From: Firmicutes bacterium UBA5449
GTDB lineage: Bacteria; Bacillota; SHA-98; UBA4971
Assembly: GCA_002424305.1 (NCBI GenBank)
Contig: DIQZ01000045.1
Coordinates: forward strand, 391 to 63,635
Direction: 5' to 3'
Length of the DNA stretch: 63,245 nt
Below the pieces are notes generated by a model. It saw only the letters and a list, made by a program, of their open reading frames with translations. It was not told the DNA's origin and searched no databases. Of this stretch, positions 4,826 through 13,198 are shown piece after piece; within the stretch, counting starts at the first letter, position 1, and each line of letters begins with the position of its first letter. The translations under genes and the position numbers were made by a program.

Positions 4826-7129
4826 TTGACCATAAGCGTTGTTACTACGATTAAGGGTAAGTGCAGGGAATGCTATGCATGTGTCCGGAATTGTCCTGTA
4901 AAGGCCATTAAAGTAGAAGACGGCCAGGCAACTGTAATCGAAGAACTGTGCATATCTTGTGGTTATTGCGTAAGGGTCTGCGCTCAACATGCAAAGCACA
5001 TCAGGGAAGATTTGGTTTCAGTTAAGAATGCGCTAAAAACAGGAAGAGCTTGCGCTTTGCTGGCTCCTGCTTTTGCAGTGGAATTTCACGGGGAATTGAA
5101 ACCGGGTCAGGTTGTGGCAGCGCTAAAAGAAATCGGATTTGCCGGCGTGTATGAGGTAGCGTGGGGAGCGGAACGTGTAACCCAGGAGTACATGAGGATT
5201 ATAGAAGGCGAGCACCCGCGCGGTATTATTTCTACGCCTTGTCCGGCCATAGTTAACCTAGTGGAAGTTAAGTATCCTCAACTCATTCCAAGACTTGTTC
5301 CGGTAGTCTCACCTATGGTAGCCGCAGGAAGAATGATAAAGAAGGAACACGTAGGGGCCTATACCGTATTTATCGGACCCTGTGTCGCCAAGAAGAGCGA
5401 GATGTTTGACTACTCAGTTGCTGACGCCATAGATGCGGTCCTTACATTTGTCGAATTGAGGACATTACTGGAGGATGCGCCTACCGGATGGGCAGATTTG
5501 CCTGACATGTCCTTCGACAGAGAAGAAGCATACCTAGGCCGGCTTTATCCGGTATCAGGCGGGCTACTTAGAAGCGCAGCGCTTTCTGCGGATATAGCTG
5601 ATAATGAAATCCTCGTTATGGAAGGTAAGGATAATTGCATCGATTTTCTTGAGGCGTTAAGTCTGGACGAAGACTGTCCGGAGTTTGTTGATATGCTGTT
5701 TTGTGAAGGATGCATAAATGGTCCCATGATGACGACAGAGCTTGACAGCTATGCGCGACGAGTAGTTGCTGTAAATTTTGCCAAGCAATCAGCACATGCC
5801 GGTTCAAGCATAACTCTAATGAAGCCGCAATTTCCTCAAATCGAGGGTACCCGTGGATTTTCACCTAGAAGTATAGACATGCCTGTTCCTGCAGAGGAGG
5901 ATATACAGCGCATACTCCTTGAGCTTAACAAGACCAAACGGGAAGATGAGTTAAACTGCGGTGCATGTGGATATAACACATGCCGAGAGAAAGCTACAGC
6001 AGTATTCCAGGGACTTGCTGAAAACAAAATGTGTCTACCATATTTAGTAATGCAGCTTGAGGTGCACAACATGGATCTGGCAGAGCTTAAAGCATATCAT
6101 GAAGACATAATTGACAGTATTATTGAAGGTATTGTAGTTGTGGACTGTAACATGACGATAACCAGTCTGAACAAATCAGCAGACCGATATTCCACCTCAC
6201 AATCCATTGGCAGAAACATGTTTCAAGCGTTCCCGGAACTGGATATTCCAAGGTGTAGGCATGGTCTTGAGAGAGCCATATCACTGGGTGAGTCAACAGA
6301 TTTAGGAGAGATGGTTTTTCAGCTTGGCGCAGACAAGATTACCTTACACCTTAAGATCAGCCCTCTTAAGAACTATGATGGAGAAGTATACGGAGCAGTC
6401 CTCCTAAGTCAAGATATCACTGAGAAGCGCAGGCTTGAAAACCAGCTCATCCAGTCTGACAGACTAGCTGCTCTAGGGCAACTGGCAGCAGGGGTTGCTC
6501 ATGAGATCAATACACCACTGACTCTCATTCTCGGATATACGGATATTCTCAAGAAGTCTGTGAGGTCGGACAACCTTGAGAGTTCATACCTTAAGACAAT
6601 AATTGAAGAATCAGAGAGGATTTCTGATATTGTCCGTAGCCTTCTGAATTTTGCAAGGCCGACTAACATGTCTGCAGGTAGATGTAAGGTGAATGAGGCC
6701 TGCAGAAGAACCCTTAGGATATTCGGAGGACAAATGAGTCGAAGGGGAATCAAGGTTACTTCGGATCTTGACGAGAGTCAGCCGGAGGCTGCCATTGATA
6801 TCGGAGAATTACAGCAAGTTATCCTTAACATGATCCTCAATGCTATGCAAGCTATGCCTGATGGGGGGCATCTGGGCATAAAGACAGGTACATCCGGTGA
6901 TGTGGTGAAGATTACCATAACAGACACAGGTACCGGAATCGCGCCGGAGAATATGAGAAAGATCTTCAATCCGTTTTTTACTACTAAGGATGTAGGCAAG
7001 GGAACAGGTCTTGGACTTTCAGTAAGTTTTGATATTATAGAAAAGCACGGTGGAACCGTCAAGGTCGAAAGCCAACTTGGCAAGGGTACAGCTTTCATGA
7101 TTATTCTTCCTAAGAATGGAGTGCGGTAG
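4826..7129 (+). CDS. Sensory-type (group C-like) [FeFe]-hydrogenase domain fused to FeS, PAS and histidine kinase domains
   Basis: 2x[4Fe-4S] (CRECYACVRNCP, CISCGYCVRVC); altered H-cluster motifs STPCPAI / IGPCVAKKSE / DMLFCEGCINGP; FeS motif CGACGYNTC...MC; PAS-like segment (EGIVVVDCNMTITSLNKSA); H-box HEINTPL; HATPase N, G1, F and G2 boxes (ILNAMQAM, DTGTGI, FFTTK, GTGLGL). Confidence 0.88.
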   Translation: MTISVVTTIKGKCRECYACVRNCPVKAIKVEDGQATVIEELCISCGYCVRVCAQHAKHIREDLVSVKNALKTGRACALLAPAFAVEFHGELKPGQVVAALKEIGFAGVYEVAWGAERVTQEYMRIIEGEHPRGIISTPCPAIVNLVEVKYPQLIPRLVPVVSPMVAAGRMIKKEHVGAYTVFIGPCVAKKSEMFDYSVADAIDAVLTFVELRTLLEDAPTGWADLPDMSFDREEAYLGRLYPVSGGLLRSAALSADIADNEILVMEGKDNCIDFLEALSLDEDCPEFVDMLFCEGCINGPMMTTELDSYARRVVAVNFAKQSAHAGSSITLMKPQFPQIEGTRGFSPRSIDMPVPAEEDIQRILLELNKTKREDELNCGACGYNTCREKATAVFQGLAENKMCLPYLVMQLEVHNMDLAELKAYHEDIIDSIIEGIVVVDCNMTITSLNKSADRYSTSQSIGRNMFQAFPELDIPRCRHGLERAISLGESTDLGEMVFQLGADKITLHLKISPLKNYDGEVYGAVLLSQDITEKRRLENQLIQSDRLAALGQLAAGVAHEINTPLTLILGYTDILKKSVRSDNLESSYLKTIIEESERISDIVRSLLNFARPTNMSAGRCKVNEACRRTLRIFGGQMSRRGIKVTSDLDESQPEAAIDIGELQQVILNMILNAMQAMPDGGHLGIKTGTSGDVVKITITDTGTGIAPENMRKIFNPFFTTKDVGKGTGLGLSVSFDIIEKHGGTVKVESQLGKGTAFMIILPKNGVR

Positions 7130-7130
7130 T

Positions 7131-8516
7131 ATGGGGGCAATCACCGGTAAGGTGCTTGTCATTGATGATGAAGAGAAAATGTGCGAATTTCTCTCTCTGG
7201 TGCTCTCTCAGGACGGACATAAAGTCTTTACTGCCACAAATGGGGAGCAAGCTTTGGATACTATGCGGTCCAAGGCAAACCTTGACGTTATTGTCACTGA
7301 CCTCATGATGCCTAAAATCAGTGGTATGGACGTTTTAGAAGAGGCAAAACGCTTGCTCCCGGATACCCCGGTGATCATGATTACCGGGTACTCTACAGTG
7401 GAAAGTGCTGTAGACGCCATGAAAGCAGGGGCGTTCGATTATTTACCAAAGCCATTCAAGGTCGATGAGGTGAAACTTGTAGTCAACAAGGCGCTGGACA
7501 GGCGAGCCATTACTCTGGAAAATAAAAGGCTTAGGCGAGAACTCCAGGCAATTCGTGAGCGGTCAGGTGAGATTATCGGCACATCCGAGAATATGCAAGA
7601 AGTTTTCCGGCTCGTTGAGAAAATCGCGAGGACTGATGCTACAACGCTGATTCGTGGAGAAAGCGGGACCGGCAAAGACCTAATCGCCCGCGAGATCCAC
7701 ATGCAGAGTCTGAGAGCCTCAAAGCCTTTCATAAGCATAAACTGTGCTGCACTACCTGAGACACTCCTCGAGAGTGAGCTTTTCGGTCATGCTCGTGGAG
7801 CTTTTACAGGTGCGGTTACGACTAAGCGGGGTCTATTTGAAGAAGCGGACGGAGGCACCATATTTCTGGATGAAATAGGAGACATCAGTCTTGCGCTTCA
7901 GGCCAAGCTCTTGAGGTTTCTCCAAAACAGAGAGTTTATTCGTGTTGGCGAGACTGTTGTGAGATGCGTGGATGTCCGGGTACTGGTTGCAACGAACAAA
8001 GATTTGGAGGCAGCCATCGAGAAGGGAGCTTTTCGTTCCGACCTTTATTATAGAATGAATGTGATAACTATCTACCTACCCACACTCAGGGAGCGTAAGA
8101 AGGATATACCCCTATTGTCTAGGCACTTTGCCCGAAAATTCGGAGCCAAATGTCTGAAAGGTACGATTGCTTTTTCCAAGGAAGCTATGGATGCTTTAGT
8201 TAATTATGCTTGGCCCGGTAATGTAAGAGAGCTTGAGAACGCAATTGAACGGGCTCTGATACTAATGGAAGGCAACGACCTTGAGCTGCATGATCTTCCG
8301 GATGAGGTAATTGAAGCGTACGAAGTACAGAAGTCCGGGAAATGCGACAATACAGACGGTGAATCATTTTATGAAGCTGTTGATGAGTACAAGCGCGAGC
8401 TGATTTCCAAGGCGCTTGAAAAATCTGAAGGCATCCAAGCCGGAGCTGCCCGGATTCTCGGTATTAAACGAACTACACTGAATGAAATGATGAAACGTTT
8501 AGGGATGCTGGGATAG
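7131..8516 (+). CDS. NtrC/AtoC-family sigma54-dependent response regulator (receiver-AAA+-Fis HTH)
   Basis: VLVIDDEE, phosphoacceptor VTDLMMP, YLPKPF, Walker A GESGTGKD, intact GAFTGA loop, FLDEIGD, WPGNVRELEN, C-terminal HTH AARILGIKRTTLNEMMKRL. Start ATG 7131, 1 nt after the kinase stop. Confidence 0.95.
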   Translation: MGAITGKVLVIDDEEKMCEFLSLVLSQDGHKVFTATNGEQALDTMRSKANLDVIVTDLMMPKISGMDVLEEAKRLLPDTPVIMITGYSTVESAVDAMKAGAFDYLPKPFKVDEVKLVVNKALDRRAITLENKRLRRELQAIRERSGEIIGTSENMQEVFRLVEKIARTDATTLIRGESGTGKDLIAREIHMQSLRASKPFISINCAALPETLLESELFGHARGAFTGAVTTKRGLFEEADGGTIFLDEIGDISLALQAKLLRFLQNREFIRVGETVVRCVDVRVLVATNKDLEAAIEKGAFRSDLYYRMNVITIYLPTLRERKKDIPLLSRHFARKFGAKCLKGTIAFSKEAMDALVNYAWPGNVRELENAIERALILMEGNDLELHDLPDEVIEAYEVQKSGKCDNTDGESFYEAVDEYKRELISKALEKSEGIQAGAARILGIKRTTLNEMMKRLGMLG

Positions 8517-8524
8517 GATCAAAA

Positions 8525-8561
8525 CGCCAATAAATTGGACGTAGTGTCCAACTTATTGGAT
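8525..8561 (+). promoter_or_regulatory. Tandem palindromic enhancer (UAS) sites, probably for the adjacent sigma54 activator
   Basis: CCAA-TAAA-TTGG (8527-8538) and CCAA-CTTA-TTGG (8548-8559), 21 bp apart, about 140-165 bp upstream of the predicted transcription start. Confidence 0.6.
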
Positions 8562-8668: not shown

Positions 8669-8685
8669 CTGGCACGGGACTTGCA
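8669..8685 (+). promoter_or_regulatory. Sigma54 (RpoN) -24/-12 promoter of the hydrogenase operon
   Basis: CTGGCACGGGACTTGCA matches TGGCAC-N5-TTGCA; GG (8671-8672) and GC (8683-8684) are separated by exactly 10 nt. Confidence 0.88.
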
Positions 8686-8787: not shown

Positions 8788-8988
8788 GTGTCAGCGCTGC
8801 CGCTAAAAGAAAACAAAGTACAGCGTTGGATACCTCATGGAGTCGATGAGGATTTGGCAGAAGAGTATGTAGAGGCAATGCAGAAGTATGGCCCGGGATA
8901 CCCTGACAGTGGTTGGTTTAGACGAGCTGCGCAACTCGAGAGGCAAATGCATGACGTTCGCCTGGAGACAAAATTTGATGAGAACTAG
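8788..8988 (+). CDS. Small hypothetical protein (66 aa), first gene of the sigma54 hydrogenase operon
   Basis: GTG at 8788 preceded by a G-rich RBS (AAAGGGGGGGAG); downstream of the -24/-12 promoter; stop 29 nt before hydB. The track start (8587) lies upstream of the promoter and is unlikely. Confidence 0.55.
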   Translation: MSALPLKENKVQRWIPHGVDEDLAEEYVEAMQKYGPGYPDSGWFRRAAQLERQMHDVRLETKFDEN

Positions 8989-9017: not shown

Positions 9018-10865
9018 ATGAGTCCATTTATTCGTGCACATATACTGGTATGTTCCGGAGCAGGATGTGTATCTTCAGGATGTTATGAAGTATATGATTC
9101 ACTCATGCATGCACTTGAAGATCAGGGAGTCCTGAACGAAGTTAAGGTAATCAAGACAGGCTGCATAGGTTCGTGCGACTTAGGTCCGACTGTCTTGATC
9201 TATCCGAATGGAACCTTCTATCAGAAGGTTACGCCTGAAGATGCCAGAGAGATTGTTGAGGAGCATATAGTCAAAGGTAGGCCGGTTGAGAGGCTGTACC
9301 CTAAACGAGCTACCGGTGAAATGGTCAAAAACATCTCAAGTTTGGATTTCTTCAAGAAGCAGGTTAAGGTGGTTCTCAGGAACTGTGGAGTCATTGACCC
9401 TGAGAATATACATGAGTATGTTGCTCGTGACGGTTATGAAGCTTTAGCCGTAGCCCTTACTGATATGACGCCCAAAGATGTCATTGATACAATAAAACAG
9501 TCAGGTCTCAGGGGACGTGGCGGGGCCGGTTTTCCTACAGGCCTCAAATGGGAATTTGCGCAAAGAGTCAATGCCGAAGAGAAATACGTAGTATGTAACG
9601 CTGATGAGGGTGACCCAGGCGCTTTTATGGATAGGAGTGTTCTGGAAGGTGATCCCCATAGTATTATCGAGGCAATGACTATAGCAGGATATGCAATCGG
9701 GGCGAGCCAGGGATATGTCTACGCTCGTGCCGAGTATCCACTGGCAGTAAGTAGGTTGACCCATGCCATAAAGGAAGCTCACGAATTTGGAGTATTAGGT
9801 GAGAACCTCTTTGGCTCCGGATTTTCGTTTGACTTGGATATTCGAGTTGGTGCAGGTGCTTTCGTCTGTGGCGAAGAGACTGCTTTGCTGGCATCCATGG
9901 AAGGCAAGCGGGGTATGCCAAGGCCCAGGCCTCCGTTCCCGGCAAATGAAGGACTCTTCAAGAAGCCGACTCTTATCAATAACGTAGAGACGTACGCGAA
10001 TATTGCGCCGATAATTCTTAAGGGACCGGATTGGTTCAGAAGCATAGGGACGGAGAAAAGCCCGGGCACAAAGGTCTTTGCTCTTGCCGGGAAAATAAAC
10101 AATACAGGTCTTGTGGAAGTTCCGATGGGGACAACTCTCAGAGAGATCGTGTATGAAATCGGCGGAGGGATTCCTGACGGTAAGGCGTTTAAGGCAGCGC
10201 AGACCGGCGGTCCTTCAGGTGGTTGTATTCCTGAGTCGCTCTTGGATATCAGCATGGAGTATGACACTCTGACTAAAGCCGGCGCTATGATGGGGTCCGG
10301 CGGACTAATCTGCATGGATGAAGACACTTGCATGGTGGATATAGCCAAATTCTTCTTGCAGTTTACTCAAGACGAATCTTGCGGCAAGTGTGTCCCCTGC
10401 AGAGAGGGCACCAAGGTGATGCTTGACATCTTGACGCGTATTACTGAGGGGAAGGGTCAGCCCGGGGATATAGAGACTCTCGAATCCCTTGCGAAGACGA
10501 TTAAGAATACAGCCCTTTGTGGACTGGGACAGACTGCACCAAATCCTGTCCTCAGCTCCATAAGGTACTTTAGAGATGAATATGAAGCTCATATTGACGA
10601 GAAACGATGTCCCGGAGGAGTTTGCAAAGATCTGATCCGGTATGAGATAGATTCAACCAAGTGTAGGGGCTGCAGTCTTTGCGCAAAAGCCTGTCCTGTG
10701 CAGGCTATTCATCCGGTTGCCAGCGAGGCTGAAGTGGCCAAAGCTGCCGGAGGCGAAAGCGGTCAGAAGCCCAAACGCAAAACGTACGAAATCGATAACA
10801 GCGAATGTCAAAAATGCGGCGAGTGCATGAGTGTTTGCCGCTTTGACGCCGTGTCCAGGAGGTGA
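9018..10865 (+). CDS. hydB: NADH/FMN-binding subunit of electron-bifurcating-type [FeFe]-hydrogenase (NuoF/HydB/HndC family)
   Basis: N-terminal thioredoxin-like [2Fe-2S] domain (CSGAGC...GCIGSC); GLRGRGGAGFPTGLKW, CNADEGDPGAFMDR, GAGAFVCGEETAL, ESCGKCVPCREG; C-terminal 2x[4Fe-4S]. Confidence 0.92.
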   Translation: MSPFIRAHILVCSGAGCVSSGCYEVYDSLMHALEDQGVLNEVKVIKTGCIGSCDLGPTVLIYPNGTFYQKVTPEDAREIVEEHIVKGRPVERLYPKRATGEMVKNISSLDFFKKQVKVVLRNCGVIDPENIHEYVARDGYEALAVALTDMTPKDVIDTIKQSGLRGRGGAGFPTGLKWEFAQRVNAEEKYVVCNADEGDPGAFMDRSVLEGDPHSIIEAMTIAGYAIGASQGYVYARAEYPLAVSRLTHAIKEAHEFGVLGENLFGSGFSFDLDIRVGAGAFVCGEETALLASMEGKRGMPRPRPPFPANEGLFKKPTLINNVETYANIAPIILKGPDWFRSIGTEKSPGTKVFALAGKINNTGLVEVPMGTTLREIVYEIGGGIPDGKAFKAAQTGGPSGGCIPESLLDISMEYDTLTKAGAMMGSGGLICMDEDTCMVDIAKFFLQFTQDESCGKCVPCREGTKVMLDILTRITEGKGQPGDIETLESLAKTIKNTALCGLGQTAPNPVLSSIRYFRDEYEAHIDEKRCPGGVCKDLIRYEIDSTKCRGCSLCAKACPVQAIHPVASEAEVAKAAGGESGQKPKRKTYEIDNSECQKCGECMSVCRFDAVSRR

Positions 10866-10867
10866 GT

Positions 10868-12634
10868 ATGATGGGAAATGAAAAAAAGAAGATTAATTTA
10901 ACAATTGACGGAATCCAGGTTGAAGCACATGAAGGAGAAATGGTGCTCGAGGCGGCGCGGCGTGCAGGGATCGATATTCCTACTCTTTGCTACCATCCGG
11001 CTGTAGGCCCGATAGGCTCTTGTAGGGTGTGTGTAGTGGAAATCGAGAATGGTAGAGGCCTCCCTGCTTCATGCGTGACCCCTGTTCGGGAAGGCATGGT
11101 TGTGCGTACTAATACTGAGGCGGTGCGTGAGGCCCGTCGTACTGTGGTTGAGCTTATATTAGCTTCTCATCCCCAGGATTGTCTCCAGTGTGAAAGAAAC
11201 GGCAAGTGTGAACTCCAGGAACTTGCCATGCGTCTTGGGATTCGGGAGAGTAGATTTCATAGAGAGAAAGAGCATAGAGAGTCTGATACGTCCAGCGTTG
11301 CACTGGTGCGTGATCCGGAGAAGTGTATACTGTGCGGCCGCTGCGTGAAAATGTGCAGTGAGACGCAGACTGTAGGTGCTCTGGGTTTTGCATATCGTGG
11401 CACTGATGCTCTTGTAACACCCATGTTTGAGCGGGGACTGGCTGAGTCAAAATGCGTATCATGCGGACAATGCGCGAAAATCTGTCCTGTTGGAGCTATT
11501 CATGAGAAAGAAGAGTGGCAGAAAGTCGCGGACATGATAAGCGATCCTGATCTACATGTGGTGGTGCAGGTAGCACCGGCAGTTCGAGCTGCTATAGGTG
11601 AGGAATTCGGAATCCCGGCAGGCACGCCTGTAACAGGTAAGCTTGCAACGGCTCTAAAGAGACTCGGGTTTGATGCTGTATTTGATACGCAATTCACTGC
11701 TGACCTTACGATAATGGAAGAAGGAACTGAGCTTCTTGAAAGGATGAAGACAAAAGGGCCGTTGCCTCTAGTAACATCGTGTAGCCCTGGATGGATAAGG
11801 TATGCAGAAACCTTCCACCCGGAGTTTATTCCCAACATATCGTCGTGTAAATCGCCTCAGCAGATGATGGGCGCGGTTATAAAGACGTATTACGCTGACA
11901 AGGCAGGCATTGACCCTGACAAGATCGCATCTATTTCGGTGATGCCGTGCACTGCTAAGAAGTTCGAATGTGCCAGACCTGAAATGAACGGATCCGGACG
12001 AAGGGATGTAGATGTCGTCCTAACCACGAGGGAACTGGCGCGTATGATTAGACAGGCAGGTATCAGGTTCGAGGAGCTCCCTGACGGTGAGTTTGATGCG
12101 CCACTTGGAATATCAACAGGAGCGGCGACGATATTCGGTGTTACAGGCGGTGTCATGGAAGCTGCTCTTCGTACCGTATACGAGATTGTCATGAAGAAGC
12201 CACTTGGCAAGGTTGAGTTCTTACAAGTCAGGGGTATGGATGGTATAAAGGAAGCTACCATTGACTTAGGTGGAACGAAGGTTCGAGTGGCTGTAGCTCA
12301 TGGCTTGAGTAATGCAAGCAAGCTCCTGAAACACATTAAGGAGACCGGAGAAACCTATCACTTCATAGAAGTAATGGCATGTCCCGGTGGCTGCATAATG
12401 GGTGGAGGCCAGCCAAGATCCGTTGATTCCGATATTGCTGTTAAGAGGGCTGCTGCACTCTACACAGAGGATAGGAGCATGGAGATGCGCAAGTCCCATG
12501 AGAATCCTGCGGTCGCGCGTCTTTATGAGGAATTCCTGCAGAAGCCGGGTAGTGACATAGCCCATAAATTGCTGCACACTACGTACGAGAGTGTGGATGA
12601 AGCTGCTGCGGCTAGTAGGAAGGAGGCTATGTAA
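10868..12634 (+). CDS. hydA: Catalytic subunit of group A3 [FeFe]-hydrogenase (HydA/HndD)
   Basis: [2Fe-2S] (IPTLC...CRVC...C), His-ligated cluster HPQDCLQC, 2x[4Fe-4S], canonical H-cluster motifs TSCSPGW, MPCTAKKFE, EVMACPGGCIMGGGQP. Start ATG 10868 (or 10871) after AGGAGG. Confidence 0.95.
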   Translation: MMGNEKKKINLTIDGIQVEAHEGEMVLEAARRAGIDIPTLCYHPAVGPIGSCRVCVVEIENGRGLPASCVTPVREGMVVRTNTEAVREARRTVVELILASHPQDCLQCERNGKCELQELAMRLGIRESRFHREKEHRESDTSSVALVRDPEKCILCGRCVKMCSETQTVGALGFAYRGTDALVTPMFERGLAESKCVSCGQCAKICPVGAIHEKEEWQKVADMISDPDLHVVVQVAPAVRAAIGEEFGIPAGTPVTGKLATALKRLGFDAVFDTQFTADLTIMEEGTELLERMKTKGPLPLVTSCSPGWIRYAETFHPEFIPNISSCKSPQQMMGAVIKTYYADKAGIDPDKIASISVMPCTAKKFECARPEMNGSGRRDVDVVLTTRELARMIRQAGIRFEELPDGEFDAPLGISTGAATIFGVTGGVMEAALRTVYEIVMKKPLGKVEFLQVRGMDGIKEATIDLGGTKVRVAVAHGLSNASKLLKHIKETGETYHFIEVMACPGGCIMGGGQPRSVDSDIAVKRAAALYTEDRSMEMRKSHENPAVARLYEEFLQKPGSDIAHKLLHTTYESVDEAAAASRKEAM

Positions 12635-13198
12635 ATGGCGTCAAGTGTTGAAGCAAAACGTAGTAAGCTTGAATCTAAAGGCGGAGAGTGTAAGTGTCAT
12701 GGGAAGCTCCCTGACGATAGGTTTGCCAAGCTCCATGACATAATTGAAGAGCATAAAGATGAACGGGGCTCTCTTATCCCTGTCCTCCATGAAGCCCAGC
12801 AGTTGTTCGGATGCCTTCCTGAAGACGTTCAAAAGCAGGTAGCAAAGGGTCTGGATGTGCCTGAGAGTGAGGTTTACGGAGTAGCTACATTCTACTCGCT
12901 GTTTTCTCTCAAGCCAAAGGGCAGGTGGATAGTGAACGTCTGCCTTGGCACAGCCTGTTATGTGAAGGGGGCAGCCGATTGTCTCGAGGCATTGAAAAAA
13001 GAACTCGGTGTCGACCTCGGTGGGACAAGCAAAGATGGGCTATTTACTTTACAGGGAGTGCGCTGTGTAGGAGCGTGCGCCCTTGCTCCTGTGGTAGTAA
13101 TCGATGATACTGTCTACGCTAAAGTCAAGCCTGAGGATATTAAGAGAATCCTCGCTGAACATGTAGAAGCGAACGCTAAGGAAGCCCATGCTTCGTAG
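12635..13198 (+). CDS. hydC: [2Fe-2S] thioredoxin-like subunit (NuoE/HydC/HndA family)
   Basis: LIPVLHEAQ..FGCLP, VYGVATFYS, VCLGTACYVKG, RCVGACALAPV; starts immediately after the hydA stop. Confidence 0.93.
   Translation: MASSVEAKRSKLESKGGECKCHGKLPDDRFAKLHDIIEEHKDERGSLIPVLHEAQQLFGCLPEDVQKQVAKGLDVPESEVYGVATFYSLFSLKPKGRWIVNVCLGTACYVKGAADCLEALKKELGVDLGGTSKDGLFTLQGVRCVGACALAPVVVIDDTVYAKVKPEDIKRILAEHVEANAKEAHAS

Follow-up and report, generated by a model that had tools for sequence, protein, structure and literature searches.

The 63,245-nucleotide stretch of contig DIQZ01000045.1 from Firmicutes bacterium UBA5449 (GenBank assembly GCA_002424305.1), referred to here as the window, carries a gene for a sensor histidine kinase whose N terminus resembles an [FeFe]-hydrogenase. 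The gene is followed by those of an NtrC-type response regulator and of a hydrogenase, hydBAC. Translation of open reading frames (ORFs) and Pfam searches delimited the kinase gene and its domains as follows.

4826..7129, + strand: sensor histidine kinase, 767 amino acids (aa), TTG start, hydrogenase-like module fused to PAS-HisKA-HATPase (ORF translation, Pfam)
4862..4981, + strand: F-domain with two ferredoxin-type [4Fe-4S] motifs, C13, C16, C19, C23 and C42, C45, C48, C52 (Pfam Fer4)
5051..5725, + strand: H-domain (Fe_hyd_lg_C), aa 76-300 (Pfam PF02906, E = 2e-46)
5957..6034, + strand: C-terminal Cx2Cx4Cx16C, aa 376-405, an extra [4Fe-4S] site (Pfam FeS, PF04060)
6113..6433, + strand: PAS domain, aa 430-536 (Pfam PAS_4, E = 8e-11)
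6473..7114, + strand: HisKA (H-box VAHEINTPL) and HATPase_c core (Pfam)

The N-terminal 410 residues are read as a sensory [FeFe]-hydrogenase module that would comprise two ferredoxin-type [4Fe-4S] clusters, the H-domain, and the cluster of the C-terminal Cx2Cx4Cx16C motif. All eight Cys of the F-domain are at least 95% conserved (79 representatives), and the four Cys of the C-terminal motif, which marks the additional [4Fe-4S] site that group C/D sensory hydrogenases typically carry (PMC8163306), are invariant in 149 sequences. The sensor kinase has the layout by which group C is defined in PMC8163306, with 2x[4Fe-4S] at the N terminus, the C-terminal Cx2Cx4Cx16C motif, and PAS. The histidine kinase association that marks HydDB C1 takes the form of HisKA and HATPase_c in the same polypeptide, and the kinase core gave a 153-bit match to the ZraS kinase core (9jfj).

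Residue equivalences in the H-domain were taken from HMMER alignments to the solved hydrogenases HDCR HydA2, DdH, and Thermoanaerobacter kivui HydA, and from a 261-sequence MAFFT alignment anchored on the HydA of the window. Throughout, the CpI number, given second below, is the HydA index minus 8.

5231..5251, + strand: motif 1, STPCPAI, aa 136-142; P138 = C299 (proton-transfer Cys position), C139 = C300 (cluster ligand)
5375..5401, + strand: motif 2, GPCVAKKSE, aa 184-192; G184 = M353, C186 = C355, K189 = K358, E192 = E361
5690..5713, + strand: motif 3, DMLFCEGC, aa 289-296; L291 = M497, C293 = C499, C296 = C503 (bridging Cys)

A sequence-only reading of this DNA had listed these motifs beside those of the locus HydA (10862-12634; TSCSPGW / MPCTAKKFE / EVMACPGGC), and translation and coordinate checks returned the same letters for both proteins. 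Its substitutions were likewise reproduced by the HMMER and MAFFT alignments: Cys to Pro at C299, Met to Gly at M353, Met to Leu at M497, and a third motif shorter by one residue. The missing residue is G501, a one-column gap between C293 and C296 that leaves CX2C where the canonical spacing is CX3C. At the positions of the H-cluster ligands C300, C355, C499, and C503 the kinase has C139, C186, C293, and C296, and alignment to the solved hydrogenases upheld the claim that these four Cys and the motif 2 Lys (K189) are kept. Because the locus HydA itself has Ser at the C300 position (TSCSPGW, aa 305-311, 11774-11794), that claim rests on the canonical TSCCP and not on the neighboring HydA. The Ser recurs in 45 of the 66 HydA motifs from 80 related loci, and Acetobacterium woodii HydA (PDB 7Q4V) has the same motif, with a Ser ligand and a normal H-cluster infrared signature (PMC10021017). 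On these grounds TSCSPGW was dismissed both as a sequencing error and as something new.

The kinase has lost the group A proton relay (C299P at P138, E282R at R124, S319V at V158, and R286G at G128), with E279 retained. This loss bears on whether the protein could be a catalytic hydrogenase joined only incidentally to a kinase, with real turnover and a moonlighting role. The full set of cluster ligands and the F-domain clusters would suit such an enzyme, and low activity is retained in TmHydS of Thermotoga maritima and TamHydS of Thermoanaerobacter mathranii (PMC10055695, PMC8163306). Against it stand the missing relay, the lack of a small-subunit-like C terminus, the fusion to signaling domains, and the dedicated HydABC encoded next door, and we find this explanation hardly credible.

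The sequence-only reading had also proposed structure prediction as a check. An AlphaFold2 model of residues 1-411, which include the motif 3 loop, was built from a 149-row alignment and proved confident, with a predicted local distance difference test score (pLDDT) of 95.3 and a predicted template modeling score (pTM) of 0.94. When it was compared with the PDB by Foldseek, all 50 top matches listed were [FeFe]-hydrogenases. The best were DdH, CbA5H, T. kivui HydA (TkHydA), and CpI, at query template modeling scores (TMq) of 0.63-0.70, 20-24% identity, and E values of about 1e-20. No solved structure of a group C/D sensor was found in the PDB by sequence (HMMER) or Foldseek searches.

Relatives of the module are abundant. 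A word-indexed search with the first 420 residues as the query returned at least 7,887 significant proteins, 976 of 1.84 billion cluster representatives matched at E < 1e-30 when searched exhaustively, and a scan with one genome per species found family members in at least 581 genomes. The phyla represented include Bacillota, Ignavibacteriota, Planctomycetota, Spirochaetota, KSB1, and Hydrogenedentota, as well as Actinomycetota, Armatimonadota, Bacteroidota, Myxococcota, and Acidobacteriota. Among 184 relatives with the short third motif, Gly353 occurs in 182, Leu497 in 175, and the G501 gap in 183. The four H-cluster Cys are present in every one of these 184 CX2C relatives, in 75 of 75 CX3C relatives, and throughout the 149-row alignment. 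Position 299 varies by comparison: Pro in 115 of the 184, Ala in 34, Thr in 15, and Ser in 8. In the sensory sequences of the literature, Pro accounts for about 10% at position 299 and Gly for about 51% at position 353 (PMC10055695).

Conservation percentiles were computed within the H-domain over 79 representatives at ≤50% identity. Position 299, the former proton relay, lies at the 39th percentile, and no other pocket column of the clade is so poorly conserved; on this ground Pro138 was rejected as a specific tuning residue, and the Pro looks like relaxed constraint on a position whose job is lost rather than design. The conservation scores are 0.91 for K358, 0.99 for S323, 0.94 for P324, 0.94 for P231, 0.97 for E361, and 0.99 for G506. 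These six residues and P354 fall at the 88th-96th percentile, with A230, S232, and A272 lower, at the 77th-84th (A230 at the 78th, score 0.82). Since residues that in catalytic enzymes bind the diiron subcluster and its cyanide ligands remain highly conserved, the diiron pocket appears to be still under selection.

These data qualify the proposal that the domain is tuned for sensing rather than turnover. Its placement among the group C sensory proteins and its loss of the proton relay agree with that proposal, and the fused PAS-HisKA-HATPase, together with the sigma54 regulator, sigma54 promoter, and hydBAC described below, supports the view that the domain is wired to signaling rather than turnover. 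G353, L497, and CX2C are near-invariant across the family, so the substitutions are clade signatures and not a tuning of this protein. Judged from the alignments, the P/G/L/CX2C pocket is a hallmark of a whole clade of proteins with fused outputs, similar to HydDB C1/C2, and is not special to this gene.

To characterize that clade, 270 relatives were sorted by Cys spacing and by output domain. In 180 of the 189 relatives with CX2C, the module is fused to a histidine kinase, alone or together with PAS, GAF, or receiver domains, or to a sigma54 AAA+ ATPase, GGDEF, or MCP, and Pfam scans confirmed examples of the kinase, sigma54, GGDEF, and MCP output types. Among those with CX3C, 75 of 78 carry none of the output domains tested; the full-length ones are about 550-630 aa long, and the two that were scanned by Pfam end in PAS at most. 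A quick maximum-likelihood tree was then computed from 160 sensor-module rows, including six of group A, and was rooted on group A HydA; its deep branches need caution, and TmHydS and TamHydS themselves are not in it. The tree gathers 78 of 79 CX2C sequences into one clade of 81 members, with a Shimodaira-Hasegawa-like approximate likelihood ratio (SH-aLRT) of 96. Every classifiable member of this clade is fused to an output domain, and so are the three CX3C sequences nested deep inside it. Stand-alone CX3C proteins form a grade below the clade, and a branch with a support of 100 splits off the six group A rows, so that the sensor module groups with HydS-type proteins. With the root on group A, the tree places CX2C at the base of one clade, and the module nests within stand-alone HydS-like proteins. 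In five relatives outside the window (P0128, P0132, P0143, P0172, and P0179), the CX2C module is fused to GGDEF, MCP, GAF-GAF-kinase, or hybrid kinase-receiver partners. The CX2C sensor module thus behaves as a portable input domain.

The sequence-only reading had offered a second possibility, that the domain binds [4Fe-4S] without a diiron unit, as Nar1-like proteins do. Such an Fe-S-only redox sensor would report the ferredoxin/NADH pool, or damage by O2 or NO, to the kinase, and would still suit the control of a bifurcating hydrogenase. CxxC spacing is typical of plain ferredoxin clusters, and the shortening to CX2C at the bridging-Cys loop is confined to the fused clade. Position 299 is Pro or variable, and H-cluster binding in C1 proteins has been doubted (PMC11406978). 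K358, S323-P324, A230-P231-S232, E361, P354, and G506 are nevertheless among the most conserved columns across phyla. This argues against a cubane-only site, because in catalytic enzymes these residues hold [2Fe] and the CN ligands, for which a cubane has no need. The clade also nests in proteins of a type shown to bind the H-cluster. Nar1/NARFL-like Fe-S proteins are described as having a hydrogenase-like fold in which the cubane Cys remain but the [2Fe]-pocket residues are lost, and the kinase has K358, S323-P324, P231, and E361 of that pocket. Taken together, we regard a cubane-only sensor as unlikely, and the H-domain most likely holds a complete H-cluster ([4Fe-4S] plus [2Fe]).

Downstream of the kinase, the locus continues with a regulator, a promoter region, and the hydrogenase genes.

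7116..8516, + strand: NtrC-type response regulator with receiver, sigma54 AAA+ (GAFTGA), and Fis helix-turn-helix (HTH) domains (Pfam, NCBIfam)
8527..8559, + strand: two CCAA-N4-TTGG palindromes, starting at 8527 and 8548, 21 bp apart (regular-expression search of the sequence)
8670..8685, + strand: sigma54 -24/-12 promoter, TGGCACGGGACTTGCA, a perfect consensus match
8788..8988, + strand: 66-aa ORF between the promoter and hydB, with a strong ribosome-binding site and no Cys
9018..13198, + strand: hydB (NuoF-like), hydA (group A [FeFe]-hydrogenase), and hydC (NuoE-like), the likely regulated operon

The 3' end of the kinase gene overlaps the start of the regulator gene (7129 versus 7116). The organization of an NtrB/NtrC-type system was found in full: a kinase with an H-box and ATPase, a regulator with receiver, AAA+ (GAFTGA), and HTH domains, and a -24/-12 promoter. 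That promoter is the sole match in the 63-kb window, where 0.11 would be expected by chance. The palindromes are candidate activator binding sites; they lie about 110-140 bp upstream of the sigma54 promoter, a position that fits an NtrC-type activator. HydA scores above the NCBIfam cut-off for "NADH-dependent [FeFe] hydrogenase, group A6" and matches the bifurcating T. kivui HydA (8a6t) at 658 bits. The 66-aa ORF has no Pfam or NCBIfam family match; a 53%-identical copy stands at the same place in one related locus (L002, 10142-10339), and the other 79 loci yielded no detectable copy. In that locus, whose sensor module is 70% identical, the whole arrangement is repeated, small ORF included.

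Conservation of this arrangement was assessed in 51 related loci from many phyla with at least 5 kb of flanking sequence on both sides. HydA and HydB are encoded within 10 kb of the sensor gene in 37 of the 51, and in many loci the end of HydA lies less than 200 bp from the sensor gene. Two further arrangements were seen. In most of loci L018, L024, L026, L027, L030-L033, L035, L037, L038, L043, L044, L056, and L061, the sensor kinase stands between two different hydCBA-type gene sets and is followed by a second kinase-like gene. These loci belong mostly to Ignavibacteriota/Melioribacteraceae, with a few labeled only Bacteroidetes or "bacterium," and one sensor may serve two hydrogenases in them. 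Tandem paralogous sensor-kinase genes, 41-43% identical to the query, occur in L034 (5305-7386 and 9491-11821), L039, and L053.

From the domain anatomy and the gene order, we propose, with a probability of roughly 60%, that the protein belongs to the HydDB C1 type and senses H2 (or H2/redox), driving the sigma54 activator of the adjacent bifurcating-type hydrogenase. We infer [2Fe] binding, the identity of the signal as H2, the route by which it reaches the kinase, and the sign of regulation, and the steps would be as follows. Rather than being turned over, H2 would determine the redox and ligand state of the H-cluster, since the group A proton relay is absent and no electron-draining partner is evident, so that protons and electrons could not leave quickly. 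The state of the H-cluster would reach the HisKA-HATPase core by way of the C-terminal Fe-S/PAS region, and the core would phosphorylate the adjacent NtrC-type regulator. Bound at the upstream palindromes, the regulator would then act on the sigma54 promoter (8670) and so control transcription of the 66-aa ORF and of hydBAC, predicted to encode a HydABC-type, NADH-linked hydrogenase of the bifurcating type.

This proposal was compared with known systems. HydDB describes C1 as "histidine kinase-linked (putative)" proteins that "may sense H2" (Sondergaard, Pedersen and Greening 2016, PMC5037454), and the kinase shares with C1 the union of a hydrogenase-like module with histidine kinase domains, the proposed H2 sensing, and the frequent place beside group A3 genes. 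C1 proteins of Hydrogenedentota that carry HATPase_c adjoin A3 genes (PMC11406978). Two Hydrogenedentota loci (L039 and L064) are among the homologues, at 41-45% identity, and the kinase is provisionally assigned to C1 by its homology to Hydrogenedentota proteins of the kind called C1 in that survey. No difference from C1, which is defined by bioinformatics only, can be demonstrated.

TmHydS and other stand-alone HydS proteins (M2f, Fer4x2-H-FeS-PAS, about 570 aa), which are probably HydDB C3, have the same module order and the same Cx2Cx4Cx16C, and the module of the kinase is 35-43% identical to stand-alone HydS-type proteins over its whole 410 residues. C299 is lost from both (Ala in TmHydS), both have Gly at M353, and both have Tyr at F417 (Y223 in TmHydS, Y241 in the kinase). 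Motifs 1 and 2 of TmHydS, read from published mutagenesis primers as TTACPVV and GPCIAKKS, are similar to those of the kinase. The same primers give I-E-A-S-A-C-Y-G-S-C-L for motif 3, with CX3C and Ser at 497, whereas the kinase has CX2C and Leu. TmHydS is also not fused to a kinase, and a 767-aa protein with a kinase core lies outside the stand-alone HydS type. The shorter motif 3 is thus not shared by TmHydS, which is the best-studied sensor and the one characterized group C sensor with a readable spacing (C-Y-G-S-C), and this leaves the HydS analogy incomplete exactly at the bridging-Cys loop. The claim of the sequence-only reading that similar replacements make HydS slow proved weaker than it was put: TmHydS and TamHydS are indeed slow, but seven TmHydS variants, including the A131C and G177M reversions, showed mostly subtle changes (PMC10055695). 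TmHydS takes up [2Fe]adt and shows H-cluster spectra (PMC10055695).

The group D (M2e) protein TamHydS resembles the kinase in its Leu at M497, its loss of C299 and of the proton relay, its C-terminal [4Fe-4S], and the place of its gene upstream of a bifurcating HydABC (PMC8163306). Group D differs in having Ser/Thr at M353, where the kinase has Gly, in lacking PAS, and in encoding the kinase-like ATPase as a separate gene (PMC8163306). Membership in group D, which Leu497 might suggest, was rejected, given Gly at 353 and the presence of PAS. The HoxBC-HoxJ-HoxA system of [NiFe] group 2b offers a functional parallel, in which H2 is sensed by an impaired hydrogenase whose signal reaches the hydrogenase genes through a histidine kinase and a response regulator (PMC5037454); its metal site and fold are unrelated, and its sensor and kinase are separate subunits rather than one polypeptide. 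Lastly, sigma54 enhancer-binding proteins (EBPs) with Fer4/Fe_hyd_lg_C/FeS inputs have been catalogued in a Clostridiales survey (PMC6615313). Those of Moorella and Thermanaeromonas contain the same module at 50-54% identity, with the same STPCP/GPC/LFCxGC motifs. They are one-component proteins, the module being fused directly to the sigma54 ATPase, whereas a kinase and a receiver are interposed here. The architecture has thus been catalogued, both as HydDB C1 and as EBPs with Fe_hyd_lg_C, and the substitutions are within published variation, which makes this gene an ordinary member of a kind that is known but uncharacterized.

Several points weigh against an H2-sensing H-cluster. The G501 deletion falls in the loop carrying the Cys that bridges [4Fe-4S] and [2Fe], and it is absent from TmHydS. 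M497L in CpI is cited in PMC10055695 as giving poor [2Fe] incorporation, yet TamHydS, with a natural Leu at M497, binds the cofactor (PMC8163306). The survey of Hydrogenedentota C1 proteins hardly found the P1-P3 motifs in them and doubted H2 sensing (PMC11406978), and the C-terminal cluster of TamHydS showed no response to H2 (PMC13104023). The maturases HydE, HydF, and HydG are implied in the genome by the neighboring HydA alone, and no report of a purified or matured member of the CX2C fused-output clade was found in the literature.

The signal, moreover, need not be H2 itself even if an H-cluster is bound; CO or O2 could serve, as could the H2/H+ couple if the F-domain clusters read it against the cellular redox poise. 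TamHydS of group D shows unusual CO and O2 reactivity (PMC8163306), the fully conserved F-domain clusters could exchange electrons with ferredoxin, and the occurrence of the module on GGDEF and MCP outputs also suggests a general metabolic cue. The tight and widespread linkage to hydABC is, however, most simply explained by H2 feedback, and no sequence feature is specific to CO or O2, so we consider a signal of this sort quite improbable. Sensing of H2 through a complete H-cluster remains our preferred reading.

Neither the CX2C signature nor its coupling to fused outputs was found in the literature on HydDB C1-type proteins, and that the G501 deletion is so cleanly associated with the fused-output clade may be a new observation. 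Given this association, the existing HydS biochemistry does not cover the clade. A broader idea, which we hold to be possible but doubtful, is that CX2C arose once, when the HydS module turned into an interchangeable input domain serving kinases, sigma54 activators, GGDEF, and MCP proteins. It may then mark a structurally different metal site, either an H-cluster with altered cubane-diiron coupling that is locked in one signaling state, or a site that no longer takes [2Fe] and is re-purposed as a redox or gas sensor. If this were true, the fused clade would be a distinct, uncharacterized type of metallosensor and not just "HydS with a kinase."

Sensory [FeFe]-hydrogenases are still called "putative" because H2 binding has never been linked to an output, and the characterized TmHydS and TamHydS have no built-in transmitter. 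The pocket of this particular gene is typical of its clade. With sensor and kinase in one chain beside a response regulator, a promoter, and a target operon, proteins of this sort offer the most direct system for testing H2 signaling, and hydrogenase chemists could study the clade-specific CX2C loop as a natural variation on the Cys bridge. Family members are very common among anaerobes from many phyla, usually beside bifurcating-type hydrogenases, and how much H2 is made and consumed in digesters, sediments, and guts is probably under their control.

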